A DNA stretch of 64,000 bases from the IMG/VR virus record IMGVR_UViG_3300038393_002131; one strand, 5' to 3'. Shown in pieces: positions 633-63,501 of the stretch; position 1 is the stretch's first letter; every line of letters starts with the position of its first letter. Below the pieces are notes generated by a model. The model made no database searches. It worked only from the letters and a program-made list of their open reading frames with translations, and had not been told where the DNA came from. A program made the position numbers and the translations under genes. This DNA comes from a virus (taxonomy: Duplodnaviria > Heunggongvirae > Uroviricota > Caudoviricetes).

Positions 633-696
633 GGGATGAGGCTCCTGTTCGTGTGTCGTCGGCCCCGACGCTCGGGGGCCATGGGTCGAGGATGGG

Positions 697-727: not shown

Positions 728-735
728 CCGGGTGG

Positions 736-1038: not shown

Positions 1039-1122
1039 GGTTCCTCCTGTGTGTCAGGCTCCCCGGACGCTTGCGGGGTGCTGTGCTCATCTTGCGTGAC
1101 TGTGCGCTATCGGGTCAAGGGT

Positions 1123-1323: not shown

Positions 1324-2003
1324 GCGCCGGCCTCCACGTCGCACACGTGCTCGGAGGCGATGCGGGCCAGGGTGCCGAGCGAGTCGGTGTGCTCGGCGTC
1401 GCAGAGGACGTGCCCGCACTTGATGCACGTGACCTCCAAGTCGCTCTTGAGGCCGTCGTCCGAGGCCACCAGCTCGACGCGGTCGAGTTCGAGGTAGAGG
1501 GGCTGGGCCTCGGGCTCGGGCTCGGGCCGCACACTGTTGAGCGGGATCACGAGGTAGTCGTCCACGTCGTCGAAGTCGGGCCGGTCCTCGATCCACGCCT
1601 TAGCCTCGTCCTCGGTGAAGAACGGGCCGTGCAGCGTGCGCGGGGTGTCGCCCTCGGTGGGCTCGGACCCGTCGTGCTCGGTCGTGTACGTGACCTCGAC
1701 GAGGTGCGTGTTGCCGTACGCGGCGTCCGTGCGGACGAGGCCGTACTCGTCGCGCGGCAGGGCGGGCGGCGTGGCGCTGGCGGGGACGGTCGTCCCGGCC
1801 AGGCGCTCGGCCTCGGCCAGCGCGCAGCGCAGCGCACGGACGATGGTCGCCGGGTCGCCGAACAGGATCGACCCGTCCGTCACGAGGGCGACCTCGCCGG
1901 GCCGCATGGGGTCCTCGGGGTCCAGTCGCGCGTTGACCTGCTCGGCGGACTCGACGCGAACGGCGGTGGTGCGGGCGTCAACCCACTCGACGTGGTTGGA
2001 CAT
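1320..2003 (-). CDS. hypothetical protein (227 aa)
   Basis: Coherent acidic protein; leader hairpin at ~2020-2047. Confidence 0.55.
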   Translation of the reverse strand: MSNHVEWVDARTTAVRVESAEQVNARLDPEDPMRPGEVALVTDGSILFGDPATIVRALRCALAEAERLAGTTVPASATPPALPRDEYGLVRTDAAYGNTHLVEVTYTTEHDGSEPTEGDTPRTLHGPFFTEDEAKAWIEDRPDFDDVDDYLVIPLNSVRPEPEPEAQPLYLELDRVELVASDDGLKSDLEVTCIKCGHVLCDAEHTDSLGTLARIASEHVCDVEAGA

Positions 2004-2104
2004 GGGGTGTCTCCTCGGGGTGTCGTGGCCCGCGACGCTCGGCGGGCCGTGGCTTCATGGTGGGCCCGGGCCCTCGGGCGTGTCGAGGGTCCGGGCGTTC
2101 CGGG

Positions 2105-2881
2105 TCAGGCGGGGACGATGTGCGGCAGCACGCCCGTCGTCGCGCCGTAGATCACCCAGCGGGCGTGCCCGGCGCGGACGAGGCCGTCGAGCGTCTTGCG
2201 CTCCCACGGCGTCTCATTGCCGCCCGACCACCGGCCGCGCCCGGCCGGCCACAGGTTGCCGCGTCGGCGCAGCGCGGCGAGGGCGTCGCGCTGGGTGCGG
2301 GTCAGGTCCTTCTCGGCGACGCGCTCGGCGGGCGGCTCCGGGTACCCGCACTCGCGCACGCGGGCGGCGTTGGCCTCGCGCTCGGCGGCGGCTGCCCGCT
2401 CGCGGCGGTCGGCGGTCGCCTTGGTGACGGACGCGTCGAACTCGGGGCCGAAGTGCTGCCCCAGGGCGAGCACGAGCGCCTCGAACGAGCCCTCGGCGTC
2501 GGCGATCAGGTGCGCGGCGGTCATCTCGTCGAGCTGGCACGCGCCGTCGATGTACGGGGCGCTGTGGAAGTTCTCAGCGTCGCGCTCCGGGTCGAACGTC
2601 ACGTACGAGCCGAGGTAGCCGTACGCGGACGACTCCGTGACGGTGAACGCGCGGAGCCGCGCGGCGGGCTCCTCGCGCATCCACGCCAGCAGCTCGGACG
2701 CGACCGTCTCGGCCTCGCCGCACGGGTGCTCCTCCACGGTGATCTGGATGTGGCTCTCGCCCTCGTGGTAGCGGTCCCAGCCGTCGAAGTCGAGGCGGGT
2801 CGTCAGCGCGTCGAGCGTCGCGTCGTCGAACGTGTGCTCGGCGTCCTCGAAGTCGACGGCGAAGTAGGTCCGGTCAGTCAT
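2105..2881 (-). CDS. hypothetical protein (258 aa)
   Basis: Protein-like ORF; leader hairpin ggtcccggcgacgcttggccggggg at ~2895-2920; terminator hairpin upstream at 2937-2972. Confidence 0.6.
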   Translation of the reverse strand: MTDRTYFAVDFEDAEHTFDDATLDALTTRLDFDGWDRYHEGESHIQITVEEHPCGEAETVASELLAWMREEPAARLRAFTVTESSAYGYLGSYVTFDPERDAENFHSAPYIDGACQLDEMTAAHLIADAEGSFEALVLALGQHFGPEFDASVTKATADRRERAAAAEREANAARVRECGYPEPPAERVAEKDLTRTQRDALAALRRRGNLWPAGRGRWSGGNETPWERKTLDGLVRAGHARWVIYGATTGVLPHIVPA

Positions 2882-2936
2882 GGGAAGTCTCCTCGTGTGT
2901 CGGTCCCGGCGACGCTTGGCCGGGGGTGGTGGGGTG

Positions 2937-2972
2937 AACCCTTGCCGGGCCCGGGCGGACCCGGCAAGGGTT
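2937..2972 (-). terminator. hairpin terminator after gene 2980..3966
   Basis: AACCCTTGCCGGG / CCCGGCAAGGGTT 13-bp stem. Confidence 0.5.
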
Positions 2973-2979
2973 CAGCGGT

Positions 2980-3966
2980 TCAGGCGTTGAGGTAGTCGCG
3001 GGCGGCGGCGTCGGGGTCGTCGGCGTTGTCGATGGTGACGTGGTCGGGGTCGTCGTCGGGGTCGTCGTCGCCCATGGCGTGACCGGCGAGGAAGGTCGCG
3101 GCCTCGTCGGGCTTCCCGAGGTCGATGAGCGCGTGGGCGATGTTCTCGGCCTCCGAGCAGGTGAAGTGCCCGCCGACGTGCTGGGCCGTCATCGCGTCGC
3201 CGAGCACGGCAGCGAGCAGACCGGCGGCGGCCTCGGCCGGGGTCGGGGCGGGCTTGCCGTCGCGGAGCGTGCCGTCGAACCCGGCAGCCTCGGCGGTGTC
3301 GAAGTCGACGAGGTCCTCCTCGGCGAAGATGTCACCCGGGTAGACCTGCGTGACCTCGACGCCGGAGAGGCGAGGACCGAAGTAGTGCGGCGACAGCGCA
3401 CCGTCAACAGCGGTCAGAGCGTCGGCCGTGACGCGCTCCGGGTCCTCGTCGCCGTCCTGCGACCCGTCGGGGAGGGTGAGCTCGACGAGGAGGTAGCGCA
3501 CGACATTGCTCGCCTGGTCGTCGTCGGCCCGCTTGAACGGCTGCACGGGGTCGTCGTGGTCCAACACCACGGGATAGCCGAGGTTCGTGAGGCGGGCCTC
3601 GCCGTCGAAGTGCTCGGCGTCACCGCAGACGATTCGGCCCCCGGGGCGGTCGAGGCACGGGCCCTCGTGGTCAACGTGGATGCCACAGGCGTCGGCGCAC
3701 ACGGCGTGCTCCGGGTGCTCCTCGTCGTCGGCGTGCTCGCCGTTCGGGTAGCGGGTCGGTCGGGCGTCGAACGCGGCCTCGTACGCGTCATCGTCAGCCG
3801 CGCGCTCGGGGACGGTCAGTGGCGGCGTCCACCCATCCTCGGCGACCTTGACCTTGAGGCCGTCGTCCCACGCGACGCGGACGGGCGCGCCGTGGGCGTC
3901 GGCCCGGGTCAGCAGCTCGGCGAGGGTGAGGACGTTGGACGCGGACATGGTGTGGATGGTGCTCAT
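2980..3966 (-). CDS. acidic hypothetical protein (328 aa)
   Basis: RBS GAGGAG 7 nt before the ATG; promoter-leader cassette at 3967-4058. Confidence 0.6.
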   Translation of the reverse strand: MSTIHTMSASNVLTLAELLTRADAHGAPVRVAWDDGLKVKVAEDGWTPPLTVPERAADDDAYEAAFDARPTRYPNGEHADDEEHPEHAVCADACGIHVDHEGPCLDRPGGRIVCGDAEHFDGEARLTNLGYPVVLDHDDPVQPFKRADDDQASNVVRYLLVELTLPDGSQDGDEDPERVTADALTAVDGALSPHYFGPRLSGVEVTQVYPGDIFAEEDLVDFDTAEAAGFDGTLRDGKPAPTPAEAAAGLLAAVLGDAMTAQHVGGHFTCSEAENIAHALIDLGKPDEAATFLAGHAMGDDDPDDDPDHVTIDNADDPDAAARDYLNA

Positions 3967-4058
3967 GGTGGCTCCTCAGTGTGTCTGGCCGGGACGCTCG
4001 TCCGGCTCTGCGAGTGACTTTAGCGGCTGTGCACGACAGTGGGGAAGGGTTCGACAGG
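3967..4058 (-). promoter_or_regulatory. promoter-leader cassette (TTCCCC-N18-TAAAGT; hairpin CCGGACGAGCGTCCCGG; GACACAC; GAGGAG)
   Basis: Read directly. Confidence 0.5.
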
Positions 4059-4955
4059 TCAGGCCGCGCCGAACAGGTCAAGGGCGTACTGCTTCGGGGT
4101 GCGCAGCGACGCCAGGACGTCCTCGCGCCACTGGACGGCGTACCGGAGGCAGTTGCGGCAGTCGCCACGGTGCGTGCATCCGGGCATCTTGATCTGCTCG
4201 CGGCGGGCCCCGTACGACCATGCGAGGGAGTCGGCCGAGACGAGGTTGTGGCCGTAGGAGGCGAGGCCCTGAGCCTTGACGCCGAACCCGTGGAGGCGCA
4301 GGCCGCGCGCGGCGAGCGTGCCGGTGATGAGGCCAATCTCGTCGGTGGACTGGCGGCGGCACACGGAGCCGAGGCCGACCAGCTGCTCGTCGGCGAGGTC
4401 GATGCCTGCGGCGGCGTACTGCTCGACGTGGGACAGGTAGTCGTCGAGGGTCCAGCCTTGGAGGACGGGCACCCACGGCGCGGCGGGGAAGTTCTCGCGC
4501 AGGTAGATCAGGTTCTCGATGGTCAGCTCTTGGTGGATCGCGACCGACAGGCCGGTGCCGGCGAACGTGTTGCCGTTCCACGTGCCGCCCGCGATGACGG
4601 CCGGCTCGCACATCCAGTCCTGCGGGGCGCACCACAGCGGGACCGCGCCGTCCTCCATGAACCGGTAGACCATGCCGCCGTACTCGTCCTCGCTCATCGT
4701 CCAGCGGCCGTGCTGCTGCAGCTCGGTGAAGCCACCGGAGTCGAGCGCCCACGCGCACCGGCCCTTGGGGAAGTCGTCGCCCTGGCGGCGGTACTTGGCG
4801 AGGGTGCGGGCCGACACGAACAGCGGCACCGGGCTCGTCTCCATCCAGCGCGGCATGTGGCAGCCGGTGAAGAACAGGAGGTGGCGGGCCGGGTCGTCGC
4901 TCGCACGGTCGGTCGTCCAAGCCGTCTCGACCTCGCGCCACAGCTGCTCGTACAT
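4059..4955 (-). CDS. DpdA/tRNA-guanine-transglycosylase-like protein (putative DNA 7-deazaguanine transglycosylase)
   Basis: Start re-assigned to M41 (MYEQLW) with RBS GAAGGAG; ALDSGGF resembles the TGT catalytic TDSGGFQ motif; C-terminal Cys/His cluster PGCTHRGDCRNC resembles the TGT Zn site. Confidence 0.55.
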   Translation of the reverse strand: MYEQLWREVETAWTTDRASDDPARHLLFFTGCHMPRWMETSPVPLFVSARTLAKYRRQGDDFPKGRCAWALDSGGFTELQQHGRWTMSEDEYGGMVYRFMEDGAVPLWCAPQDWMCEPAVIAGGTWNGNTFAGTGLSVAIHQELTIENLIYLRENFPAAPWVPVLQGWTLDDYLSHVEQYAAAGIDLADEQLVGLGSVCRRQSTDEIGLITGTLAARGLRLHGFGVKAQGLASYGHNLVSADSLAWSYGARREQIKMPGCTHRGDCRNCLRYAVQWREDVLASLRTPKQYALDLFGAA

Positions 4956-5043
4956 GGGGGGCTCCTTCGGTGGTGTCGGCCCCGCGACGCTCGGCGGGGC
5001 ATGGCCCAACCATGCCGGGCCGGGCCGACGGTGGCAACGGTTC

Positions 5044-5079
5044 CCGGCATGGTGCGACCCCCGCGCCGGAGCCATGGCG
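5044..5079 (-). terminator. terminator after the small Lys-rich gene
   Basis: GCGACCCCCGCGCC / GGCGCGGGGGTCGC 14-bp stem. Confidence 0.5.
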
Positions 5080-5105
5080 CGGGGGTCGCAGTCTGTGGGG
5101 GCGGG

Positions 5106-5276
5106 TCAGCCTCTCGCGGCCTTCTTCGCGAGCTTGGTCTGTTCCTTGAGCAACTTCGTTTGCTTCTTCGCGTGGCGCTTGGCCGTCCGCGCGTAGGCGG
5201 CGGCGCGCTCCTTGTCGGAACGGAAGTCGACCGCGCCGAGGGTAGAGACGCTGAGGATCTTGCGGGTGAGGCCCAT
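5106..5276 (-). CDS. small Lys-rich basic protein (56 aa), absent from the ORF track
   Basis: ATG at 5276 with RBS AGGAGCACCC; MGLTRKILSVSTLGAVDFRSDKERAAAYARTAKRHAKKQTKLLKEQTKLAKKAARG; followed by a 14-bp-stem terminator at 5044-5079. Confidence 0.35.
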   Translation of the reverse strand: MGLTRKILSVSTLGAVDFRSDKERAAAYARTAKRHAKKQTKLLKEQTKLAKKAARG

Positions 5277-5318
5277 CGCGGGTGCTCCTAGGTGAGTGTG
5301 GTTGGGATCGGTGTGCGG

Positions 5319-5597
5319 TCAGCGGGCTCGAGTCGCCTCGCGGGCGGTGACGCGGGCGGCGTAGTCCTCGACGCAGAGGGGCCACCCTGCGCGCTCCTTG
5401 GTCGCGGGCCGGGGGCATTCGTCGACGGAGCACGAGACGGCGGGGTCGTCGCCCTGGGGGTCCTCGACCGGTGCCGGGGCCGGCACGGTCGCGGCGCGGC
5501 GCTTGGCGCGCTCCTCCCACACGTAGTTCGCGAGGACGACGAGGGCCAGCAGGGCGAACGCGGCGTACTGCCAGGTCGGGGTGTCGGCGAGGTTCAT
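5319..5597 (-). CDS. small membrane protein (92 aa)
   Basis: One hydrophobic helix (AAFALLALVVLANYVW); 4-nt overlap with the upstream gene. Confidence 0.45.
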   Translation of the reverse strand: MNLADTPTWQYAAFALLALVVLANYVWEERAKRRAATVPAPAPVEDPQGDDPAVSCSVDECPRPATKERAGWPLCVEDYAARVTAREATRAR

Positions 5598-5836
5598 GCG
5601 GCCGACCCCGACACGGGCGAGTCGTTGACGTAGACGCGGAGGGCGGGGTCGTCCTCGGCGGTGTCAATGTCGACGACGAGGTACGGCGCGCCACCGTCGG
5701 ACGGGTGGTGCCAGTAGACAGCGACGCGGGCGGCGTCGTGCTCGACGGCGACAACGGCATCGCCGTGCGGGTGGTCGATGGTGTGCGTGACGCCGCCGTC
5801 CTGCGCGGTGTCACTGGTGACGGTGAGCTCGCTCAC
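5594..5836 (-). CDS. hypothetical protein (~81 aa)
   Basis: GTG start at 5836 with RBS GAGGAG and leader hairpin ccggcgacgctgtgccgg; the Pro/Arg-rich 5' part of the track ORF is rejected. Confidence 0.45.
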   Translation of the reverse strand: MSELTVTSDTAQDGGVTHTIDHPHGDAVVAVEHDAARVAVYWHHPSDGGAPYLVVDIDTAEDDPALRVYVNDSPVSGSAA

Positions 5837-6032
5837 GGGGGTGCTCCTCGGGGTGTCGGTCCGGCGACGCTGTGCCGGTGGGGGTGTGCGACCCGGCGCG
5901 GGTGGGTGGTGGTTGGGGTCACTTGCCCGCGCCGGGCCTGTCGTGGGGTGTTGCCCCGGGCCGGGGCCCTCGCGCTTGGCAGGGTGTGGGTCGTCACCTG
6001 CGTGCGCTCGGGCTCCCGGGGCCCCGGGGAGG

Positions 6033-6689
6033 TCAGGCGGTCTTGGCGAGCCGTGCGGCTCGGGCGGCGTGGTTCTCGGCGACCCACGCGAGCGGGTTGG
6101 TGTAGCCCTGCTCGATGCGGTCGGCGACGGCGTCGTAGAACAGGACGCGATCGGTCGGGCCTTCCTCGTCAAGAAGGGCGGCGGCGGCGGCGCGGTACGC
6201 GTCGAGCACGGGCTGTGCGTCCTCGATGGTCTGTAGGCGGTAGAGCGCGTCGCAGGTGCCGCAGGCGACGGTGATGACGAGCTTGCCCTCCCACTGGCGC
6301 TGCCCGACGAGGCGGAGCACGGGGCTGTTGGCGACCTCGGCGGCGTAGGGCTCGGCGGGGATGGTGCGGCCGTCGTTGGAGGCGGGGCACGGGAGACGCT
6401 TGGGCGTGCCCCACGTCTCGACGTCAGCGGCGGGCGCGCTGTAGTGGCGGGTGTCGGCGTCGGAGAGCCACAGGAGCGCGTCCAGCATGGGGACGTCGTC
6501 GCGGCGGTTCCAGTCCTCGGTCATGCCGGGCTTGTGGCCGTCCTCGTCGGGCCACGGGAACCGGTAGAGCCAGCCGGGCTCGGTGTAGGTGGGGGACACC
6601 TTCATGGCGTCCTCGGCGCGGAGGCCGTAGAGGGACTCGCAGGTGCCGACCTTGATCGACCGGCCGTTGTAGGTGGCGTACTCGCCCAT
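6033..6689 (-). CDS. hypothetical protein (218 aa)
   Basis: RBS GAGAAGGGG; best-formed cassette upstream (TTGACC-N17-TAAAGT plus hairpin) at 6690-6775. Confidence 0.6.
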   Translation of the reverse strand: MGEYATYNGRSIKVGTCESLYGLRAEDAMKVSPTYTEPGWLYRFPWPDEDGHKPGMTEDWNRRDDVPMLDALLWLSDADTRHYSAPAADVETWGTPKRLPCPASNDGRTIPAEPYAAEVANSPVLRLVGQRQWEGKLVITVACGTCDALYRLQTIEDAQPVLDAYRAAAAALLDEEGPTDRVLFYDAVADRIEQGYTNPLAWVAENHAARAARLAKTA

Positions 6690-6775
6690 GGGGATTCCCC
6701 TTCTCGGTGTGTCCTTGTCGGGGACGCTTGTCCCGACACCCCTGACTTTAGGGGCTGTGCACTACAGGGTCAATG
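6690..6775 (-). promoter_or_regulatory. promoter-leader cassette (TTGACC-N17-TAAAGT; hairpin GTCGGGACAAGCGTCCCCGAC; RBS GAGAAGGGG)
   Basis: Read directly; closest match to the sigma-70/SigA-type consensus. Confidence 0.6.
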
Positions 6776-6884
6776 GTTCGCGTGTCGGCGAGTCACGGCA
6801 CCGGCACGGGGCCGGCAGGTGAGGCGGTCAGCCACACCCACACGACCCCGGCCAGCACAGACAGGGCAACGGCCTGCCAGACCT

Positions 6885-8087
6885 TCACGCGACCAGTCCG
6901 GCGCGCTCCATGATGTTGCGTACCACGTCCTCCTCATACTCGTCCCAGCACGCGGCGAGCAGCTGGTCGAGGCGGTCCGGCTCGGCGTCCTCGACTGCCT
7001 GGGCGGCCGTCTCGGCGCGGGTCAGGTAGCGGCCCGTCTCGATCCAGCTCTGCCGCGACGCGCTCGACTCCGTGTCGAGGTCGCCCTCGACGTGCGTCCA
7101 CGTGACGCCGAACCGCTCGGCGAGCTTGCCGGCCACCTGCTCGGCCTCCTCGCTCGTGGGGAAGTCCGCGACGTGCATGGTCGGCCGGGCGGTGTAGGTG
7201 ACGTAGATGCCCCACACGTCGGGGGCCTCGCCGTCCTCGGCGGGCCGGGCCTCGTCCTCGGTGACGCGGACGGCGGTCACCTCGAAGGCGTTGAGGCCGA
7301 CGGCGCGGGCCGGGAGGTACTGGCCGTGACGCTGCCAGTGGTCGAGGGACTCGTGCGACCACAGGTCCGCGTCGACGCGCTCGACGTCGTTCTTCTCGCA
7401 GCGGTCGTCGGTGTCGTCGTCACCCTGCCCGGGGCACCGGTTGTCGTCGTTGCCTCGGTGGATGAACTCGCCGCGGGTGTTGTCGAACCACACGACCGCC
7501 GCCTCGTCGGCATAGTCGATGCAGCGGCCGCACACGGCGACGGTGCGCAGGGCGCGGTCGTGGTTGTAGGTGCCGCCGTCGCGCTTGTCGACGGAGCGCC
7601 AGTAGGCCAGGGCCTCGGCCTCGGCCTGCGGGTCGGGCGTGATGTGGTTCGGCGGGGTCGGGGCCGACTCGTCGGACGAGAAGGCGCGGTGCGGCTCGGC
7701 GTGGCCCCGGAGGGCGAACGAGGTGGCGTTGTCGATGTTGAGGCGGACGGACCGGCCCCGGGTGAGGAGGGCCCGCTCGCCGTCGATGATCGACTGCTCC
7801 AAGTAGCGGATCGCGGACGTCTTGGGCTTGAGCACGCCGCGGCCGATGACCTTCTCGGGGCGGATGCGGTTCGCGCGGACGTCGTCGAGCATCCGCCTGT
7901 CGCGGACGAGCTCGCGGAGGAAGTGCTCCTCGCCCCATCCGAGCAGCTCGCCGCGCCAGATGCCGTCGAGGTAGTCGTTGACGGTGGCCGGGCGGGCCGG
8001 GACCATGCGCACCTCCTCGCGGAGCATGTAGTCGCGCAGGGTGGTCGCGGTGAAGGTGACGGGGGCCTCGGTGGTCGTGGTGCTCAT
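6885..8087 (-). CDS. hypothetical protein (~400 aa)
   Basis: Start re-assigned to M65 (MSTTTTEAP) next to a leader hairpin at ~8105-8125; acidic protein with Cys-rich segment CGRC...C...C. Confidence 0.6.
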   Translation of the reverse strand: MSTTTTEAPVTFTATTLRDYMLREEVRMVPARPATVNDYLDGIWRGELLGWGEEHFLRELVRDRRMLDDVRANRIRPEKVIGRGVLKPKTSAIRYLEQSIIDGERALLTRGRSVRLNIDNATSFALRGHAEPHRAFSSDESAPTPPNHITPDPQAEAEALAYWRSVDKRDGGTYNHDRALRTVAVCGRCIDYADEAAVVWFDNTRGEFIHRGNDDNRCPGQGDDDTDDRCEKNDVERVDADLWSHESLDHWQRHGQYLPARAVGLNAFEVTAVRVTEDEARPAEDGEAPDVWGIYVTYTARPTMHVADFPTSEEAEQVAGKLAERFGVTWTHVEGDLDTESSASRQSWIETGRYLTRAETAAQAVEDAEPDRLDQLLAACWDEYEEDVVRNIMERAGLVA

Positions 8088-8145
8088 GGGATCGTGCTCG
8101 CTCTCTGTGTCGGCCGGGACGCTGTCCGGCGGGGTGTGGGGCCCA

Positions 8146-8175
8146 CCTTGCCCGGCCGGTGTCGACCGGGCAAGG
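8146..8175 (-). terminator. hairpin terminator after gene 8186..8719
   Basis: CCTTGCCCGG / CCGGGCAAGG 10-bp stem. Confidence 0.45.
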
Positions 8176-8185
8176 GTTGTGACGG

Positions 8186-8719
8186 TCAGAGGGACGCGGC
8201 GTCCTCGGCCTCGGCGCGGGCCCGGCCGACGGTCAGGCCACGGTCGTACTCGGCCTGCTGCCAAGGGTTCTCGTACCACGTCGGCTCGGTGCCGTAGTAG
8301 CCGACGGAGTACCCCTCGGCGAACGCGGACGTCTCCTCAACGTTGCAGAGGCAGCCCTCGCGCGCGCCCGGCACGCGCTCTGCCCGCAGACGGCGCACGG
8401 TGCCACCCTCGAGCCGGAGGTCGGCGACGTCGGAGTGCAGCTGGTCGCGCGTCTGGTGGTAGGTGACGAACGTGCCTGGGGTGCCCTTCCGCTCGCCGAC
8501 GAGCATGTAGTGGACGTGCTCGCGGCCAGCGGCCAGCGCCCACCCGACGTGGTTCTCGCCGGTGTCGGCGCACTCGATGATCGGGACGTACGTGCCAGCG
8601 TTCGGGGCGTTGGTCAGGGCCTCGACGACGCGCTTGACGACGGCGTACTCCTCGTCGGTCAGGTCGAGGGCGACACCGAGGGTGTCCTCGCCGGCGAGGT
8701 AGATGAGACGTTCGGACAT
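8186..8719 (-). CDS. hypothetical protein (~177 aa)
   Basis: Start at M71 (MSERLIY); leader hairpin ggccggggacgctggcccgggcc at ~8742-8765. Confidence 0.55.
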   Translation of the reverse strand: MSERLIYLAGEDTLGVALDLTDEEYAVVKRVVEALTNAPNAGTYVPIIECADTGENHVGWALAAGREHVHYMLVGERKGTPGTFVTYHQTRDQLHSDVADLRLEGGTVRRLRAERVPGAREGCLCNVEETSAFAEGYSVGYYGTEPTWYENPWQQAEYDRGLTVGRARAEAEDAASL

Positions 8720-8807
8720 GGGATGGCTCCTTGGGTGTCGTGGCCGGGGACGCTGGCCCGGGCCGGGTGTGTCGAGCATGGCGCCGGGCGCGCGGTCCGG
8801 CAAGGGT

Positions 8808-9020
8808 TCAGATCGGCGACCCGTCCCGCAGGACGACGCCGGGTGCGATGGGGACGACGTTGACGTCGTCCGGGTAGAACGGGAGGCCGAACACGCGGAC
8901 CTGCTCGCAGTGCCGCTCCCACGCCTCACGGAGCGCCGTGAGCGCGGCCTCCGGGGACTCGGCCAGGGCGGTGAAGTCGTAGTGCCTCGTCGAGTAGGTG
9001 GCGAGGAACAGGGCGCTCAC
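8808..9020 (-). CDS. hypothetical protein (70 aa)
   Basis: Compact ORF; 4-nt overlap with 9017..9373. Confidence 0.5.
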   Translation of the reverse strand: MSALFLATYSTRHYDFTALAESPEAALTALREAWERHCEQVRVFGLPFYPDDVNVVPIAPGVVLRDGSPI

Positions 9021-9373
9021 CGGTCGGCCTCGAACCCGGTCGCGGTGCGGGCGTGGAACCAGTCCCCCGTGGGCCCGTACGCGCCGTCGACGCGCAGCCA
9101 GACCTTCCAGTCGGGGCCGAGGACCGCGCGGTAGACGCGGCCGCGCAGGTGGGCGGTGCCGGGCTGGCCTGCGGGCTGGCCGCGGTGGTGGTCCGGGTTC
9201 GGGTAGAGGCCGTGCTCGAGGACCGTGCCGTCGGTGAGGACGACGACGGTGTCGGGCGTGTGCGGCTCATTCGCGGTCGCGGTCGGGCACTCGACGCGCG
9301 GGTGGCGCTGGGTGGCGACGTGGTCGCCCCGGTCGGCGCAGGTGGCGTGCTCGCGGGTGAGGTTGATGGTCAT
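9017..9373 (-). CDS. hypothetical protein (118 aa)
   Basis: Protein-like ORF with RBS upstream. Confidence 0.55.
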   Translation of the reverse strand: MTINLTREHATCADRGDHVATQRHPRVECPTATANEPHTPDTVVVLTDGTVLEHGLYPNPDHHRGQPAGQPGTAHLRGRVYRAVLGPDWKVWLRVDGAYGPTGDWFHARTATGFEADR

Positions 9374-9416
9374 GGGGATGCCCCGTTCTGCTCGATGGTG
9401 CGGGATGGGTGGGCCG

Positions 9417-9779
9417 TCAGGCGACGGCGGGAAGGTCGGCCAGCTCCTGCGCGATGAACCCGACCTCCCAACGGTTGAGGCCGTTAGCGGCGTGCGTCGG
9501 CTTGCCGTGCACGTCCTGCCACGCGGGCAGGTCGTAGCGGGCCACGTCGTAGCGGTCGATGCCGTAGCCGCGCACCACGAGGACGGTGTCGTCGGCCCGG
9601 TAGATCGTGACGGCGAGGTCGACGTCGCGCGGGTCGAGCTCGACGTCGTACTCGATGCGCTCGTGCCCGAGGTACTGGCCGAGGACGTCGAGGCCGGTCA
9701 GCGACAGCAGGCGGGTGCGGCGGCTGACGGTGCCGGTGTGGGCCGGGGTGACGACCGGGATGGTGGACGTGGCGTGCAT
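9417..9779 (-). CDS. hypothetical protein (~120 aa)
   Basis: Start at M22 (MHATSTI); cassette at 9780-9865 (TTCCCT-N17-TACGCT, hairpin with AGAGCGTC loop). Confidence 0.5.
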   Translation of the reverse strand: MHATSTIPVVTPAHTGTVSRRTRLLSLTGLDVLGQYLGHERIEYDVELDPRDVDLAVTIYRADDTVLVVRGYGIDRYDVARYDLPAWQDVHGKPTHAANGLNRWEVGFIAQELADLPAVA

Positions 9780-9865
9780 GGGATGCCTCCGTGGCGTGTC
9801 TCGGTCGGGACGCTCTCCGACCTGATGTGCAGTAGCGTACACCGGCGCAACGACAGAGGGAAGGG

Positions 9866-10033
9866 TCAGCGCAACGTCACGACGAGGCCGGCCAGCATCA
9901 CCACCACCGCGGCGACGACGCCGGCCAGGGCGGGCCCTCCCCCGTCCGTGCGCGGCACCGCCCGCCGCCGGGCATCCCGGGCGGCGAGCGGCACGAACAG
10001 CGCAGCGGCGGCGAGCAGGGCCAGCAGGGTCAC
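9866..10033 (-). CDS. small two-helix membrane protein (~55 aa)
   Basis: GTG at 10033 overlaps the TGA of the methyltransferase gene (GTGA); strongly hydrophobic. Confidence 0.3.
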   Translation of the reverse strand: MTLLALLAAAALFVPLAARDARRRAVPRTDGGGPALAGVVAAVVVMLAGLVVTLR

Positions 10034-11727
10034 GCGGCGTAGGCGTCGGCGACGACGCCCATGATGTCGCGGGAGCACGGCGGGCACACAGCGTTCCCGG
10101 CCATCTTCACGAGGTCACGCTTCGAGGGGGTCTTGCCCTTCTCGTCCTTGACGTCCCACCGGTAGTTGCGCGGGAACGCCATGCCCGCGGCGGCCTCGTG
10201 CGGTTGCAGCATCCGCAGGTAGCACTCTGACACGAGCTCCTCGGCGCGGCGCAGGTCGCCCGGGTCGACAGCCGGGCGGGGCTTGCGCGGGTCGGCGTGC
10301 ACGAGGGACTGGTGCGCGGCCGTGGTGATGGTCCGCAGGTACTCGGTGACGGGCGTGCTCATCTCGGACCCGCCGTGGTTGTTCCGCATGATGAGGGCGT
10401 GGCGGTCAACGGTCGTGACCGTGTCCATCGCGTCGCTGACCGGCTTCGCCGTCTTGCCGTTGCCGTAGTAGGACTGGATCAGGCTCATGTTGCCGCCCGA
10501 GCCGGTGATGGTCCGCAGGAACTCGTCGACGGGCGTGGAGTGGCGGGCCGGGTCGCCGCCCGGGACGCCGTAGTGGCGGGTGATGAGGGCGTGGTGGTTG
10601 CCGGACGCGGTGAACGTCGCCGCGGGCTCGGTCAGCGGCCGCGTCTCGGAGTGGCCGCCGCGCAGCTCGGCCATGAACGGGGCCGTGGCGAGAGCGGTCT
10701 CGGCGCGGGTCGTCTGCGTGCGCAGCGCCTCCCACATCGCCTGCGCGTCCTTGCCGGCGCGGCCCTCGACGGGCACGGCCAGGGCGTACGCCTCGCGGGT
10801 CGTCAGGGTGCGCAGGGCCTCCTCGACGGAGCGGGCGTCCTCGTTCCACGTCCCGCCCGACGGGACGACGGTCGGCGTCATCCAGTAGCGGGCGATCCCG
10901 GCCGCGATCCTCGCGCGGGTCTTGGCCGCGAGGCGGTCGCCGATCAGGTCGCCCTTGAGGGACCAGTCAATCGCGGTGTAGGCGGGCAGGTAGCCCGGCT
11001 CGACGACGGTGCCGCACGCGCCGTGCACGTAGACGTAGGACTGGCGGTAGCGGCCGACGGTCGCGCCGCCCTTCCACGACTGGTTCGCCTCGATCATCGC
11101 GTCGCACTTCGGGCAGTACGCCTTCGGCCGGAGGATCCGGTCGAGGTCGGGGACCGGGTTGCCCTTGATCCACGCCACGATGAAGATGCGGTCGCGGGAC
11201 TGCGGGGCGGGCATCCCGAACGTCTGAGCGTGCATCGCGTTGAGCGACACGACCCGGAACTCGTAGCCGAGCGCGGTCAGCTGGCGGCGCCACTCGTACC
11301 ACGCGAGCCGGTACTTCGCCTGGACGGCAATGTCGACGACGTTCTCCACGATCACGACGGAGTAGCGGTGGTGCTCGACGAACTTGAGCACGTCGAACAT
11401 CAGCAGCCGGGAGCGGTGCGTCGCCTCGTCCGAGAGCGGGTCGGCGAACAGGCCTTCCTCGATCTTCTCGCGGGCCTTGCCCGATGCCTGGGACCACTTC
11501 GTGCACTCCGGGGAGGCCCACAGGACGTCGGTGCGCTTGAAGAACGACGGGCGTTCCATGTGGAGGTCGACGGCGGCGTGGTCGGTGTCGGGGTGGTTCT
11601 GGTTGTGGACCTCGATCGCGAGCTTCCAGTGGTTCGCGGCCTGCGTCACCCGGACACCGGGGATCTGCACCATGCCGGTCGAGGACCCGCCTGCGCCTGC
11701 GAAGTGGTCAGTGACGGTGAGGGACAT
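10030..11727 (-). CDS. DNA (cytosine-5)-methyltransferase
   Basis: Motif I FAGAGG, motif IV-like SPECTKWS, motif VI VIVENV; 565 aa. Confidence 0.85.
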   Translation of the reverse strand: MSLTVTDHFAGAGGSSTGMVQIPGVRVTQAANHWKLAIEVHNQNHPDTDHAAVDLHMERPSFFKRTDVLWASPECTKWSQASGKAREKIEEGLFADPLSDEATHRSRLLMFDVLKFVEHHRYSVVIVENVVDIAVQAKYRLAWYEWRRQLTALGYEFRVVSLNAMHAQTFGMPAPQSRDRIFIVAWIKGNPVPDLDRILRPKAYCPKCDAMIEANQSWKGGATVGRYRQSYVYVHGACGTVVEPGYLPAYTAIDWSLKGDLIGDRLAAKTRARIAAGIARYWMTPTVVPSGGTWNEDARSVEEALRTLTTREAYALAVPVEGRAGKDAQAMWEALRTQTTRAETALATAPFMAELRGGHSETRPLTEPAATFTASGNHHALITRHYGVPGGDPARHSTPVDEFLRTITGSGGNMSLIQSYYGNGKTAKPVSDAMDTVTTVDRHALIMRNNHGGSEMSTPVTEYLRTITTAAHQSLVHADPRKPRPAVDPGDLRRAEELVSECYLRMLQPHEAAAGMAFPRNYRWDVKDEKGKTPSKRDLVKMAGNAVCPPCSRDIMGVVADAYAA

Positions 11728-11799
11728 GGGGTGGCTCCTTCGTTCGTGTCGGTGCCGGGGACGCTGTCCCGGCTGGTGATGCTGAGTTTGGAGCGGGTC

Positions 11800-11839
11800 G
11801 GCCCGGGGGTCAACGGTTTCGGCCGTCGGCCCCCGGGCC
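11800..11839 (-). terminator. hairpin terminator after gene 11845..12150
   Basis: GGCCCGGGGG / CCCCCGGGCC 10-bp stem with an 18-nt loop. Confidence 0.45.
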
Positions 11840-11844
11840 GGGGT

Positions 11845-12150: not shown

Positions 12151-12215
12151 GACGGCGCGGCTGTCGCGCGGCGGGTGCTGCACGGGTCGTTCTCCCTGTC
12201 GTGGGTGGGTGTGAG

Positions 12216-12809: not shown

Positions 12810-12852
12810 GGGTTGGTGTTCCTGTTCGGTGTGAGTTCTGCTGCGCGGGTGG

Positions 12853-13389: not shown

Positions 13390-13458
13390 GGGTGGATCTC
13401 CCCTTCTCGGGTGTCGGTGATGAGGACGCTGACTCAGGTGGTGCTTGCGGGTCGTGCT

Positions 13459-14933: not shown

Positions 14934-14936
14934 GGG

Positions 14937-15692: not shown

Positions 15693-15782
15693 GGGGATGC
15701 CCCTTCTGTGTGTCGCGGGCCGGGACGCTTCCGACCCCCTGTGAGGGACTTTAGCGGCTGTGCACTAGCAGGGCAAGGGTTG
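15693..15782 (-). promoter_or_regulatory. type example of the reiterated early promoter-leader cassette
   Basis: Minus sense: TGA-CAACCCTTGCCC(-35)-N17-TAAAGT(-10)-...GGTCGGAAGCGTCCCGGCC hairpin-CGCGACACACAGAAGGGGCATCCCC-ATG. Confidence 0.6.
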
Positions 15783-16829
15783 TCACGCCGACACGCTCGA
15801 CGCGGCCAAGGCGCGCTCGTCGATCACCGCGGCGAGCCGAGCCCCGACCCACTCCCCCAACTTCGCGTGGACACAGTTGCCGAGCATCGTGAACCGGGCC
15901 GACGGCGGCACCCCGGGCACATCGGTCCAGCCGTCGTCGAACCCGGACAGCCGCTCCCACTCCGTGAGGGTCAGAGTGCGGAGCCGGCCGTCGTCGACGA
16001 GCAAGTGCTTCTGCCGCAGCGGGCCGCCCGGGTCGTAGCAGGCGAGGGTGTTCGCGACCTCGGACCGGACCCACGTCTCCCAGCCGCCCTCCTCGATGGA
16101 GGCACGGGCGTTCGCGGACTTGCGCCACACGGTCACGGCGTCGCGGCGACGTCCTCCACTAGGGCGAGCAGCTCCGGGTCGACTCGCGCCATGCCCGGGG
16201 AGAGCAGCCGCGGCAGGAACTTCCGGGCCTGTGCCGGTGTCATCCAGCACTGACCAGGCGACGGTGGGATCTCCCGAACGATGTCCGACCAAGATGATTC
16301 GCGGACGGTCTTGGAGGGTGTCAAGGTGTCCCCCGTCCAGCAGGCGCCACGCGTACCCATACCCGAGGTCCCCCAAGGCACTTTGCGCGTGCCACCAATC
16401 GCGGCCGCCGTTAACGGTGAGAGACCCGTCGGGATTCTCGATGACGACCCACTCGGGTCGGGCCTCGTCGACGAGCCTGATCTGCTCGTAGAACAGGCTC
16501 GAGTCTTTGCCTCGGAGGCCGGTTCGTTTCGTGGCTCCCTTGCTGGTCTGCTTGCAGGGGAATCCCCCCACAAGGACAGTTGGGTCACCGAGGTCTGCTC
16601 CGTTGACATTGCGCACGTCCTCCAAGATCGGGATGCCTGGGAAGCGCGTGGCGAGCACGGAGCGGGCGTGGACGTCCTTCTCCACCATGACGGTGCAGCG
16701 CATGCGGGCGTGCATTCCGAGGTCGAGTCCTCCGATGCCGGAGAACAGGGACGCGAACGTCGTGGGTGTGTGCATGGGTTGGCGCTTCCTGTGTGTCGCG
16801 CGGGGTCGCTTTCCCGCGTCACAGCCCAT
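15783..16829 (-). CDS. DNA (cytosine-5)-methyltransferase, Dcm-like
   Basis: Motif I FASLFSGIGGLDLG, motif IV GFPCKQTS, motif VI-like VVIENP; 348 aa. Confidence 0.8.
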   Translation of the reverse strand: MGCDAGKRPRATHRKRQPMHTPTTFASLFSGIGGLDLGMHARMRCTVMVEKDVHARSVLATRFPGIPILEDVRNVNGADLGDPTVLVGGFPCKQTSKGATKRTGLRGKDSSLFYEQIRLVDEARPEWVVIENPDGSLTVNGGRDWWHAQSALGDLGYGYAWRLLDGGHLDTLQDRPRIILVGHRSGDPTVAWSVLDDTGTGPEVPAAAALPGHGASRPGAARPSGGRRRDAVTVWRKSANARASIEEGGWETWVRSEVANTLACYDPGGPLRQKHLLVDDGRLRTLTLTEWERLSGFDDGWTDVPGVPPSARFTMLGNCVHAKLGEWVGARLAAVIDERALAASSVSA

Positions 16830-17445: not shown

Positions 17446-17506
17446 GGGGTGTCGGTCCTGCTTTCGTGTCGTGGCCGGGGACGCTTCCCGGCCGGTGAAA
17501 CGGACA
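17446..17506 (-). promoter_or_regulatory. promoter-leader cassette of the LysM gene (TTGTGT-N17-TAATGT; hairpin CCGGGAAGCGTCCCCGG)
   Basis: Read directly. Confidence 0.5.
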
Positions 17507-18423: not shown

Positions 18424-18509
18424 GGGTGCTGTCCTCCTGAGGGTGGACCCCGACGCTAGAGGGGTCCGGCGGGAGAGCGGCTTGTCGCCTCTCCCGAGCG
18501 GGGTCCGTT

Positions 18510-22807: not shown

Positions 22808-22899
22808 GGGGATGCCCCTCTTGTGTGTCGTGGCCGGGGACGCTTTCCCAGCCGGTGACCCGACGTTAGCAGATGTGCACTACTGGTGGAAGGGTTGGG
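22808..22899 (-). promoter_or_regulatory. promoter-leader cassette (TTCCAC-N17-TAACGT; hairpin with AAAGCGTC loop)
   Basis: Read directly. Confidence 0.5.
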
Positions 22900-25837: not shown

Positions 25838-26119
25838 GGGGATACCCCTCGGAGTGTCGGGGCCCGGGACGCTGTCCGGGCGGGTGGTTCGTGGGGCTGA
25901 CTGTAGTGCCGCACAGTCGCGCAACGCAAGGGTGCCGGGCCCCAGGCCCGTTTCCTGTATCGGGGCAAAATCCCCCAACCTACCCGGACAGGGTTCGCAT
26001 GTAACATTCAGGAAGGACCGGCCGATAGCGGTGCGACCCTCAAGCAGAGCGGGGTTGGTAAGGCGGGTCCTAGCAGTGGTTCCTTCACCCAAACCCCTGA
26101 CTCGGAGCAGTACCAACCC
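25838..26119. promoter_or_regulatory. 282-bp divergent control region between the HTH regulator (minus) and the sigma-factor operon (plus); lower GC and lacks the standard cassette
   Basis: No class-I hairpin before the sigma gene; the minus side has a hairpin at ~25855-25875. Confidence 0.45.
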
Positions 26120-28966: not shown

Positions 28967-29053
28967 GATGGGTGTTTTCCTTCTCGTTGTGTCGTGCCCC
29001 GGGACGCTTGTCCGAGGCGGTGAGCACACCGTACCGGCGTGCTACGACAGTGG

Positions 29054-29311: not shown

Positions 29312-29454
29312 GGGTGGGTGAGGGTCCTTCCTGTCCGAGCCCGACGCTGCTGGGCTCCCCGAGTTGCACCCACCATCCGGCGGGGCCAACGGTATCCATG
29401 GTAGGTCGCCGCGGGCATTCGGGGTGCTGGTTCGGGCAGACTCGTGCAGCGTGG

Positions 29455-32138: not shown

Positions 32139-32262
32139 GACGGGTTTGGGTTCCCTTCTCAGGTGTCGGGTGACCGGGACGCTTGTCCGGTCAGTCGCAG
32201 CATAGAGGAAGCCCGCGCGTTGGGGGGTTCCAACGCGCGGGCTCCGGTCGTGTGGGTGTCGT

Positions 32263-32499: not shown

Positions 32500-32631
32500 G
32501 GGTACATCGCTCCTTCGGTGTCGAGCCCGGGACGCTTTCCGGGCTGTTGGGGATGACGGTAGAACGAGCGGGGGGCACCGTCAACGGTTCTCGTCGACGA
32601 CGCCCCCGGCTTGGTTGCGGCACAGGGCCGG

Positions 32632-34664: not shown

Positions 34665-34799
34665 GGGTCCTCCGGTCGTGTCGGGGATCGGGACGCTTGT
34701 CCGATCACTCGGTAGCGTACAGGCGCTAAAGGTCCCGGGCAAGGGTCAGGGCCACCCGCGTCGCTACGACGGGTGACCCTGACCGGGATGCTCGGTGTG

Positions 34800-39499: not shown

Positions 39500-39764
39500 G
39501 GGGGTTCTCTCCCGTGTGTCGGCCGGGGACGCAATCCCGGCGTGTGGCTGCAGTTTCGCACACCCGCTCATCTCGGGCAAGGGTTGCAACTAGACACGCG
39601 GCGCGCCGACTGCACAAAGTGCACCGGCTGCAGTGCACTTTCGGCCGACACCCCTGACACCACCCCCAACGCGCAGGCGCGCGACAGGCGCGCACGCGCG
39701 CGTACGCGCGAGGAATGCATTCTGTCAACTCCGGCCCCACCCGCCCCTGCTCTACGATTGGCGC
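39500..39764. promoter_or_regulatory. divergent switch region with operator-like palindromes and GCGCGC repeats
   Basis: TGCACAAAGTGCA palindrome; inverted repeat AAAGTGCAC-N8-GTGCACTTT (~39608-39640); then CAGGCGCGCACGCGCGCGTACGCGCGA. Confidence 0.5.
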
Positions 39765-41949: not shown

Positions 41950-42042
41950 GGGTGGTTCTCCATCTGCTGTCGGGCCCGGGGACGCTCTCCCGGGGTACGT
42001 CTTTAGTAACTGCACGCTATCGCACATCGGCGACAGCGCCAA

Positions 42043-42740: not shown

Positions 42741-43251
42741 GTGGGGTTCTCCCGGTGGGGTGTCGGTGAGCGTGGACGCTGTTCCGCTGTAAGCGCATCG
42801 TAGCGACGACGCAAAGCGCGCGCTGCTAGACGCGCACACCCCTATTGCAATGCGCGCGCACTCACGCTTCGCGATATGAGAGATGGCCGCTCGGTCTACC
42901 GGAGGGTTCGTGTGCCGGATCGTAACCGTAGCGTTCGGCGTCCCCGTCGCTTAGTCGCGACACCACATGTCGTGGCGACCAGGCCCAACCCATGAAGGAC
43001 CTTTTGACTCGCGCGCTCAAATGGTGTTGATCCGCCGTACACGCGACAGTTTCCTGTCCCGTGGACACAACAGCGGCACCGCTTTTGAGCACCTGTGACG
43101 ATCGACCTCCGGCAGCCCGAGCGGCCACCTCTGCGGTCAGTGTAGCGAGCCGAACCTAAATATGCGTGGTGGGGCTAGCGCAAGGTTCGAGCAAGATGTA
43201 CCGCGCGCGTGCGCGCGAACCACTATGGGCGCGCACGCGCGCGGCGTGTCG

Positions 43252-58900: not shown

Positions 58901-58955
58901 GATGGGTCGTGCCTTCCTGTGTGGTGGATATCCGCCCGGGACGCTGCCCGACCGC

Positions 58956-59845: not shown

Positions 59846-59920
59846 TGCGTCCGTAGCGCACAGTCGCTAACGTCACGGGCAAGGGCGGAAGCGTCCCGCC
59901 CATGACACCAAGGAGAGCCA
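59846..59920 (+). promoter_or_regulatory. plus-orientation copy of the cassette driving the small gene 59921..60079
   Basis: CAACCCTTGCGT-N17-TAACGT then GGCGGAAGCGTCCCGCC hairpin, ATGACACC, AAGGAGAG; shows the element orientation follows the gene. Confidence 0.5.
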
Positions 59921-63282: not shown

Positions 63283-63501
63283 GATGTTTGGGGGTCCTTT
63301 CCCGTGTTCGCTGGCTGCGTGTGGCTGGTGTCAGCTCGTCCGCCCGGCCAGCGCCGGGACAGCCCGTCTAACGGAGCGGGAAGGTGTCAGGGGCGAAATG
63401 CTTGTGTCGCGTCCTCACGCGATAGCGTTGACTCGCTAAAGTCGTGCGGGTAGCGTTCGCAGGGCCGGGAAGCGTCCCCGGCAGACACACACGGAGGACC
63501 A
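63283..63501. promoter_or_regulatory. divergent promoter region between the capsid gene (minus) and a plus-strand operon
   Basis: Plus: class-II motif at 63400-63417, TTGACT-N17-TAGCGT, sense hairpin and RBS before 63502; minus: hairpin CCCGGCGCTGGCCGGG and RBS GAAAGGA before 63282. Confidence 0.5.
63400..63417 (+). repeat. class-II motif copy upstream of the capsid gene and of a plus-strand promoter
   Basis: GCTTGTGTCGCGTCCTCA. Confidence 0.6.

Follow-up and report, generated by a model that had tools for sequence, protein, structure and literature searches.

The 64,000-nt stretch of DNA analyzed here (hereafter, the window) is from IMG/VR virus record IMGVR_UViG_3300038393_002131 (Duplodnaviria; Heunggongvirae; Uroviricota; Caudoviricetes). 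The element under study, termed the AGCGTC module, is a short hairpin-containing unit found in the leaders of many of its genes, as at 6706-6745 upstream of gene 6033-6689. The window is 70% G+C, the minus strand holds almost all of the genes and intergenic DNA makes up 13.4% of the bases. Its structural genes include those for the capsid and tape measure (Table 1), a tail tube and a 1,532-amino-acid tail protein. Further recognizable genes encode DpdA (4059-4955), a C5 DNA methylase, a dCMP deaminase, SSB, a WhiB-like protein, a DnaC-like loader and a RecA-like ATPase. No relative of the window was found by nucleotide search among GenBank phages (near and distant) and plasmids. By protein comparison, Streptomyces phage Gilgamesh (129 kb; 60% capsid identity) comes closest among phages in culture, and the window is syntenic with it in the structural genes, a ParB-TerS-SSB block and the ATPase.

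On the minus strand, the copy at 6706-6745 has the sequence TAAAGT-cagggg-TGTCGGG-acaAGCGTC-CCCGACA-ag-GACAC-accgagaaGGGGaatcccc-ATG. The bare word AGCGTC occurs in the window at chance level (66 copies versus 70.8 +/- 8.5 in shuffles). Structured hits were defined as one to three unpaired nucleotides followed by AGCGTC, with the 3' arm immediately after and a stem of at least 5 bp. By this rule there are 27 hits in the window, whereas 200 dinucleotide shuffles averaged 2.27 hits and never gave more than 7, and AGCGTC ranks first among all 4096 hexamers (the runner-up has 17 hits). Rather than being equally frequent in coding DNA or randomly oriented, 24 of the 27 hits are intergenic (25 after one gene-call correction), and every intergenic hit is in the sense of the downstream gene, both plus-strand genes included. 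Two hits are antisense to coding sequence, which equals the chance expectation. The total rises to approximately 30 copies if three weaker copies and two single-mismatch copies with full architecture (TGCGTC at 39533 and AGCGAC at 16810) are counted.

A covariance model, R1, was built on an alignment (A2) of 14 in-register copies and searched with filters off. In the window it has 27 matches of at least 20.9 bits, all of them in leaders and in the sense orientation, including 13 from outside the training set. The next match scores 17.8 bits (one degenerate copy) and those at 14.6 bits and lower are noise; no strong match was found in coding or antisense DNA of the window. In 1.55 Mb of other actinophage and prophage DNA, R1 has only three matches, at approximately 21 bits. 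The preliminary description had reported a hairpin with an invariant AGCGUC loop in at least 24 mRNA leaders of this DNA. The hairpin is real and its support is stronger than was claimed, although the number of copies is better given as approximately 30. All seven copies cited as examples are present at the places given, and the two plus-strand genes do carry the motif in the plus sense (59883-59910 and 63463-63490).

Table 1. AGCGTC modules and associated features of the window (R1, covariance-model score in bits)
Feature	Associated gene or remark	Position	Strand	R1
Module, stem TGTCGGG/CCCGACA, loop acaAGCGTC, GACAC	Leader of gene 6033-6689	6707..6738	-	26.0
Promoter-like TTGACC-17-TAAAGT	Ends 6 nt before stem	6745..6773	-	
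Module, loop cgAGCGTC	Leader of gene 105-632	651..681	-	40.2
Module, loop caAGCGTC	736-1038	1049..1080	-	35.9
Module, loop cgAGCGTC	1320-2003	2018..2048	-	45.0
Module, loop caAGCGTC	2105-2881	2895..2925	-	42.7
Module, loop acgAGCGTC	2980-3966	3979..4007	-	28.7
Module, loop cgAGCGTC	DpdA gene 4059-4955 (Pfam DpdA)	4971..5000	-	40.3
Module, loop acAGCGTC	5594-5836; no clear upstream promoter	5851..5880	-	41.0
Module, loop acAGCGTC	Gene start ~8079	8105..8132	-	36.2
Module, loop ccAGCGTC	8186-8719	8733..8763	-	41.1
Module, loop agAGCGTC	9417-9779	9794..9823	-	36.4
Module, loop acAGCGTC	C5 DNA methylase gene 10030-11727	11744..11774	-	42.8
Weak-stem module (TGAG/CTCA), loop tcAGCGTC	12853-13389	13409..13439	-	20.9
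Module, loop aAGCGTC, U.G pair in stem	15453-15692	15708..15737	-	29.0
Single-mismatch variant, loop aaAGCGAC, with GACAC		16791..16819	-	30.2
Module, loop aAGCGTC	16990-17445	17464..17493	-	34.3
Hairpin GGACCCC-tctAGCGTC-GGGGTCC without GACAC	17935-18423	18441..18466	-	10.2
Module, loop aaAGCGTC	22496-22807	22823..22853	-	42.7
Module, loop acAGCGTC	24680-25837	25852..25882	-	46.1
Module, loop acaAGCGTC	SSB gene 28391-28966	28987..29018	-	31.6
Hairpin GAGCCC-agcAGCGTC-GGGCTC, then GACAG	29054-29311	29329..29356	-	12.0
Module, loop acaAGCGTC	Gene start ~32140	32161..32193	-	24.8
Module, loop aaAGCGTC		32516..32545	-	41.4
Module, loop acaAGCGTC	34116-34664	34676..34707	-	26.7
Single-mismatch variant, loop atTGCGTC, with GACAC	38843-39499	39514..39542	-	31.2
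Module, loop agAGCGTC, box GACAG	RecA-like ATPase gene 40354-41949	41965..41995	-	40.2
Atypical: AGCGTC and GACAC, poor pairing	42147-42740	42758..42789	-	21.2
Atypical: TCGG-gcAGCGTC-CCGG without GACAC	58433-58900	58936..58951	-	9.9
Module, loop aAGCGTC	Plus-strand gene 59920-60078	59883..59910	+	24.5
Module, loop aAGCGTC	63502-63888, head of operon running past the window	63463..63490	+	27.9
Capsid	Structural gene	61984-63282		
Tape measure	Structural gene	49842-53567		

The stem of the module is 5-7 bp long (4 bp in two weak copies) and the loop is 7-9 nt, with one to three variable bases (mostly A or C) followed by AGCGTC. These six bases are unchanged in 28 of 30 copies, and the base after them is G, not C, in seven. 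The 3' arm begins directly after the loop and is followed by 2-4 nt and then the box GACAC, which is replaced by GACAG in two copies and absent from three. Because the gap between AGCGTC and GACAC is narrow (6-10 nt, mode 9) and the distance from GACAC to the start codon is wide (15-29 nt), the box belongs with the hairpin and not with the ribosome site. The spacing to the start codon is loose: the codon lies 23-39 nt past the end of AGCGTC (median 30) and the stem ends approximately 17-33 nt upstream of it, rather than the 15-25 nt originally given for the hairpin. The sequence after the stem is C/A-rich with no T run, and a terminator scan of positions 1-20000 found none at the modules. The G/C hairpin thus does not have the layout of an intrinsic terminator, in which a T/U run would follow.

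Immediately before ATG there is often a C run (CCC or CCCC; for example, at 6690-6695, 15693-15698 and 22808-22813). The final 6 nt ahead of the start contain CCC in 22 of the 27 module genes, compared to 17 of the 65 other genes. With a GGGG-type Shine-Dalgarno (SD) sequence, this run could form a 4-bp mini-hairpin (GGGG-nnn-CCCC) covering the SD.

The arms of the hairpin vary in sequence and retain their complementarity. Twenty-five distinct stems are found among 28 copies, with both G-C and C-G present at every pair position. In alignment A2, 90.6% of stem cells are paired, compared to 59.7% in shuffles (none of 500 reaches the observed value), and two-sided compensatory changes occur at all seven stem pairs; slid controls, in which the partner was shifted by one to three columns, give at most 58% pairing. 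The hairpin is the predicted fold in seven of eight full-length leaders. The only other leader fold is the 4-bp helix between the SD and C run, seen in some leaders; otherwise the hairpin stands alone. The initial description, of a loop that stays constant in the mRNA sense while its G/C stem co-varies, is thus borne out by both the covariation counts and the R1 search. Because the arms are kept for pairing around a fixed, asymmetric center, the module is expected to act as a folded single strand. This species is likely to be RNA, since a double-stranded protein site would conserve its arms and a hairpin with a 5-7 bp stem and 7-9 nt loop would not be expected to leave the DNA duplex. Of the two interpretations first offered, a structured RNA is therefore supported. 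Little speaks for a double-stranded DNA site with the sequence GGACGC/GCGTCC, since the word is not enriched, seven copies have G after AGCGTC and the flanks are kept for complementarity.

Three features go beyond the preliminary description: a tight link to one class of promoter, a predicted position at the extreme 5' end of the transcript and the occurrence of the same module with other loops in related phages. A promoter with the pattern CCnT(T/C)(G/C)-N-(N)AnnnT and a 15-18 nt spacer lies upstream of 19 of 28 modules. Its typical forms are aaCCCTTGcc for the -35 region and TAAAGT, TAACGT or TACGCT for the -10 region, together a sigma-70-type aaCCCTTGcc-N17-TAnnnT. A scan with the E. coli consensus found only the promoter at 6745-6773; the others required a less strict pattern, fitted to the copies. 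In these 19 modules the first base of the stem is 6-19 nt (median 10) past the end of the -10, a placement for which 1% of random positions qualify. Conversely, all 16 sense-oriented intergenic matches to a stricter promoter pattern are followed by the hairpin.

Transcription usually starts approximately 7 nt past the -10. The stem should therefore begin at approximately +1 to +8 of its own transcript, and we infer that the hairpin forms the 5' extreme of that transcript. This geometry speaks against a direct effect on ribosome binding. With its position set relative to the promoter and the box but variable relative to the start codon, the hairpin would be expected to act at the transcript 5' end or on the polymerase, rather than by masking the ribosome site.

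The same geometry bears on two ways in which the module could work as DNA. It might be a hairpin or cruciform promoter like those of the N4 virion RNA polymerase, with transcription starting at GACAC, or it might be a double-stranded operator immediately downstream of a host promoter. N4-type hairpin promoters have a 5-7 bp stem and a 3-nt loop. The stem length of the module fits this pattern and the 7-9 nt loop does not. The distance of approximately 12-15 nt from loop to GACAC also recalls the N4 arrangement. Lineage-specific loops would be in keeping with phage RNA polymerase promoters, and Gilgamesh contains an unexplained open reading frame (ORF) of 4,624 amino acids that could be a candidate enzyme. 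However, loops of this size on such stems should not extrude from duplex DNA, the approximately 30 copies are spread over 63 kb rather than being a few at a genome end, and they sit behind a host-type promoter (strict match in 19 of 28). Pfam, PHROG and PDB gave no match for the giant ORF, and the window contains no RNA polymerase-sized ORF. An operator would conserve the arms and not the center, and the word AGCGTC is at chance level. A DNA-level element consequently has very little probability. The Gilgamesh ORF, gp48 (L254, 21978-35852), has portal and capsid genes on either side; no match to it was found in Pfam, PHROG or PDB sequences. The module also differs from Cluster A stoperators and other double-stranded DNA operators, which have at least 13 nt of conserved asymmetric sequence and need no pairing, in having 6 + 5 fixed bases and complementary flanks.

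Modules of the same design are present in relatives of the window phage. Gilgamesh has approximately 15 leaders with a promoter (TTCCnTTGGTGTACTAT), a gap of approximately 10 nt, a stem with the loop AGAGCA(A), a box (ACCACGAAG) and an SD. These are found on both strands in gene orientation, and part of the copies have exact AGAGCA hexaloops. Among IMG/VR contigs, L301 carries GTTGGG-AGAGCGA-CCCAAC, while L331 and L299 have an (N)GAGCGA loop on varying stems. With an alignment of the RecA-like ATPase, 32 loci were found. All of them belong to Streptomyces genomes, and many sit on separate contigs of 121-135 kb. The orthologous ATPase leader has ...CGGG-AGAGCA(A)-CCCG... in 32 of 32 loci (AGAGCGA in one), followed by a CCCGAAG..GAAAGG box, and its outer stem pairs vary between lineages; the window orthologue has CCCGGG-agAGCGTC-CCCGGG. 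AGAGCA-type leader hairpins number 54 per 1.0 Mb in loci of this family, compared to 7 per 1.8 Mb in other high-G+C phage loci.

The combination of AGCGTC and GACAC was found in none of the relatives examined. As these relatives carry the same module with other loops and boxes, the architecture is, by sequence comparison, a property of the lineage in which the window phage has its own loop/box pair. A scan of IMG/VR for the exact pattern AGCGTCCCGG..GACAC gave chance single matches only, among the matches listed. The loci around two capsid relatives (L001 and L002) have no early cassettes, and in Gordonia phage ChisanaKitsune (37% capsid identity) the genes are tightly packed and the cassette architecture is absent. 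IMG/VR phages with related DpdA proteins were considered as kin and rejected as unrelated. In L331 (leaders of 842-2221 and 2853-3977) and L299 (leaders of 3-1127 and 2004-3236), CGCTC, which is complementary to the loop GAGCG, lies 12-20 nt past the hairpin. A pseudoknot between the loop and downstream sequence was rejected as a general feature, as this complement is found in two gene leaders of each of these contigs and in no other modules or phages.

Many Gilgamesh-like elements (L336-L367) appear in Streptomyces assemblies as contigs of their own, 121-135 kb in length, and Gilgamesh encodes ParA, ParB and an integrase. Together, these features suggest that members of the lineage live as extrachromosomal prophages (phage-plasmids).

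One of the two described systems closest to the cassette is the promoter-early stem-loop (PeSL) cassette of the T4-type phages RB49 and phi1 (Arbiol et al. 2010; PMC2839356). In both, many intergenic units combine a sigma-70-type early promoter, a G/C stem-loop and an SD, and precede mostly small genes of unknown function in the variable part of the genome. PeSL cassettes mediate gene shuffling, through mini-circles and cassette-flanked indels (PMC2839356). In contrast to the module, the PeSL stem-loop may lie anywhere around the promoter, terminates upstream transcription and has an unconserved loop, while the window hairpin is 6-19 nt downstream of the -10, inside its own transcript, has no T run and carries both an invariant loop and a second box.

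The resemblance raises the possibility that the module is a passive, standardized cassette of this kind, in which the hairpin is a 5' stabilizer or insulator, spread with ORFan genes by recombination and having no dedicated reader. Constraints on folding, promoter escape or translation efficiency would then preserve the loop and box, or these would reflect descent of the cassette. The unit is indeed stereotyped from the -35 through the ATG, most genes behind a module have no Pfam family, and the cassette type is common to the window phage and Gilgamesh even though they have few early genes in common; the PeSL units, with a promoter, G/C stem-loop and SD flanking ORFans, provide a precedent (PMC2839356). 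However, invariance in the module is limited to short blocks, while the stems, the 5' bases of the loop and the spacers vary freely, which argues for selection on the blocks rather than recent copying. Stability by itself requires neither six fixed loop bases nor a box at a set distance, and the concerted replacement of loop and box between relatives would be left unexplained. We consider a passive cassette unlikely, although it is the most probable of the alternatives; if it proved correct, the module would clearly parallel, in an actinophage, the PeSL concept of a "mobile regulatory cassette".

Protective stem-loops are also found at the 5' ends of bacterial and phage mRNAs, an example being the ompA leader. 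To our knowledge, such stabilizer hairpins have no loop-sequence requirement and do not occur as a repeated family across a genome.

The other is the set of start-associated sequences (SAS and ESAS) of Cluster K mycobacteriophages (Pope et al. 2011; PMC3203893). Like the module, SAS are orientation-specific repeats of unknown function upstream of many non-structural genes, with subcluster-specific variants. They are, however, 13-nt linear asymmetric motifs that overlap the SD and lie 3-7 nt from the start, whereas AGCGTC is 23-39 nt from the start and separate from the SD. ESAS have conserved arms (a 17-nt inverted repeat), a variable spacer and no RNA-pairing support, whereas the module has variable, compensating arms and a fixed center.

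In recognition logic, the nearest systems are nut sites and single-hexaloop ANTAR targets. A small promoter-proximal hairpin with a specific loop and a linear box is reminiscent of lambda nut (boxB plus boxA) and HK022 put. By analogy, the nascent hairpin and box might load an N-like protein or act on RNA polymerase to allow processive read-through of the U-less hairpins that follow most genes. The fixed spacing of hairpin and box is in agreement with such a role, loops differ between the related phages as boxB does among lambdoids, and strong hairpins follow stop codons, such as those upstream of 632 and 2003. Small, very basic ORFs are present as well (for example, 5106-5276), though they do not by themselves point to an N-like protein. 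On the other hand, there are approximately 30 copies rather than the two of lambdoid phages, and read-through is not an obvious need where nearly all genes have a promoter of their own. The order of elements also differs: boxA is upstream of boxB in nut, whereas nothing like boxA (CGCUCUUA) was found upstream of the hairpin and the only linear box, GACAC, is downstream. The loop is 7-9 nt and not a GNRA-like pentaloop, and no N-like protein was found in the window, although such proteins lack a detectable family signature. Antitermination thus appears distinctly unlikely. Pairing of the loop as a complement of boxA was rejected because it would involve the wrong strand. The hairpins right after stop codons on the minus strand have 12-13 bp stems at 632-735, 2003-2104 and 2881-2979 (for example, CCCGGACCCTCG...CGAGGGTCCGGG and GAACCCTTGCCGGG...CCCGGCAAGGGTTC). 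These hairpins extend into the -35 and spacer of the following cassette promoter and may be U-less terminators that share sequence with it.

The loop sequences themselves recall the targets of ANTAR proteins, in which a conserved A1/G4 loop is carried on a stem of free sequence. The module could accordingly be an attenuator or operator for an ANTAR-type or other host RNA-binding regulator that reads a single A1/G4 loop and makes only backbone contacts to the stem. AGCGUC, AGAGCA and AGAGCG all have A1 and G4, a single A1/G4 hexaloop with arbitrary stem sequence is the minimal site (PMC8934654) and targets are common in actinobacterial 5' untranslated regions (PMC8164766). Typical ANTAR-target RNAs, however, have dual exact-hexaloop hairpins (2-25 nt linker) that overlap a terminator or ribosome site, with two conserved loop positions. 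The AGCGUC core does have A1 and G4, but one to three extra unpaired bases make the loop 7-9 nt rather than 6. The second hairpin and any overlap with a terminator or ribosome site are missing, a downstream box is present and six loop bases are fixed, far beyond what an ANTAR site needs. No ANTAR domain (PF03861) was detected among the window proteins, and the motif is confined to the Gilgamesh-like phage family. This explanation is very improbable.

Simpler candidates were rejected as well. The stems are too short for an RNase III site, AGCGTC is neither enriched nor avoided as expected of a restriction or methylation word, and pairing of the loop with the late motif GGACGC is possible in the window phage only and not in Gilgamesh. 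Repeats of tRNA-like or CRISPR-like type do not fit either, as there are no tRNAs and every copy precedes an ORF. No Rfam family matches the window at the gathering threshold; at E<=1, positions 1-12000 gave chance-level matches only, none of them on a module, and in the relatives Rfam detected tRNAs only. A literature search with the literal sequences found no paper describing the motif. As each of the closest systems has at least one defining feature that was looked for and is absent from the module, membership in a named family is not indicated. The module is regarded as a previously undescribed leader signal, a putative protein-read hairpin in a phage regulatory cassette.

The model that we tentatively favor, at a probability somewhat short of even, is that the module is an RNA tag on early-class transcripts, whose stem shields the 5' end while a specific factor reads the loop and box and sets the fate of the class. 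Host RNA polymerase would start at the sigma-70-type promoter aaCCCTTGcc-N17-TAnnnT. After the first 0-7 nt, the transcript would contain the 5-7 bp G/C stem and the 7-9 nt loop ending in AGCGUC, followed by 2-4 nt, single-stranded GACAC, a C/A-rich spacer, the SD, a short C run and the start codon. Because 5'-terminal hairpins block RNase E/J attack that depends on the 5' end, the stem would provide these messages with a protected 5' end. A sequence-specific RNA-binding factor, most likely a product of the phage lineage itself, would dock on the invariant loop and the box at a set distance. A co-evolving phage-encoded reader fits better than a general host factor because the loop and box are swapped together between relatives and are confined to the family. 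Such a factor would treat the whole class of early transcripts alike, presumably by affecting transcript fate (stabilization or licensing, or a timed shut-off) rather than by directly masking the ribosome site.

The anatomy of the module, its statistics, the stem covariation, the coupling to a promoter and the other-loop modules of relatives are direct observations that support this tag model. Several points weigh against it. Pfam scans of all window proteins found no RNA-binding protein (no ANTAR, KH, S1 or CsrA domain). Every block of the cassette is conserved, including the CCC run before ATG, so the conservation may partly reflect a standardized cassette rather than a dedicated reader. The start sites are predicted from promoter geometry alone, and since nine modules have no strict promoter match, some hairpins may be internal to transcripts. 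Leader folding energies are ordinary for a composition of 70% G+C (z -0.4 to -2.8), and G.U and A.C mismatches (15 versus 7, p = 0.13; 3 versus 3 in the window alone) do not discriminate the strand that folds.

A broader version of the tag model, which we consider quite doubtful, extends it to all Gilgamesh-like Streptomyces phages and phage-plasmids. The 5'-terminal hairpin and box would mark the phage's own messages, co-evolving with a phage-encoded reader, and would license early transcripts to survive or be translated during shut-down of host messages. The loop types across the family are AGAGCAA in most members, GAGCGA in some and AGCGUC with GACAC in the window phage. In a variant of this scheme, the hairpins are possibly promoters for a virion-delivered polymerase, for which the ORF of approximately 4,600 amino acids would be the candidate. 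If correct, own-message tagging would be the equivalent, in a bacterial virus, of an escape from host shut-off that depends on the leader.

With approximately 30 uses in half a genome, the motif would define a whole regulon of otherwise unannotated phage genes, and it predicts a dedicated reader protein. Because relatives of the module are present in cultured Gilgamesh (grown on S. lividans) and in dozens of 120-135 kb Streptomyces prophage-like elements, this prediction is directly testable in a tractable and industrially important host. The natural loop and box variants on one architecture represent a ready-made specificity experiment and, if a reader exists, the loop/box pairs might serve as orthogonal expression parts for Streptomyces.

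Two module genes encode putative DNA modification enzymes: an AGCGTC module precedes both the gene for the DpdA-family transglycosylase (7-deazaguanine DNA modification; 4059-4955, minus strand) and that for the C5 cytosine methylase (10030-11727, minus strand). At the other end of the window, the module at 63463-63490 heads a plus-strand operon that runs on past position 64000. A 68.9-kb Logan contig (SRR35145397_71079) encodes an identical capsid protein and extends approximately 65 kb past the right end of the window, from which the complete genome is estimated at approximately 126-130 kb. Beyond the window, the operon encodes a DUF5131 protein, a metallophosphatase, an 891-amino-acid AAA_10 (conjugation-type) ATPase and an M23 peptidase. 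The conjugation-type ATPase, the peptidase and the other products are unusual neighbors for a capsid gene (L368, 1-10000). On the Logan contig, a partial AGCGTC hairpin lies approximately 113 nt upstream of the AAA_10 gene. No tRNA genes were found in the window; the 127-kb relative L301 has a cluster of seven tRNA genes at 17950-20038.

A second repeated motif, (t)GA-GGACGCGACACAAGC on the minus strand, follows directly on stop codons and precedes structural genes by 35-90 nt. Its 15-mers end at 23356, 44317, 55320, 56026 and 63414, and near copies are found at 54574, 58392, 30778 and 33850. A scan of IMG/VR with a 14-mer of this late motif gave mostly noise among the matches listed; a few of the loci are relatives that carry it. 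Gilgamesh gp92 is annotated as a sigma factor, and the window has no homologue of gp92. The core of the repeat, GCGACACAAGC / GCGACGTTAAC, also precedes the late genes of Gilgamesh and occurs in five IMG/VR contigs (L235, L219, L177, L189 and L156), with four to seven copies each. The repeat looks like a conserved late-promoter-type element.

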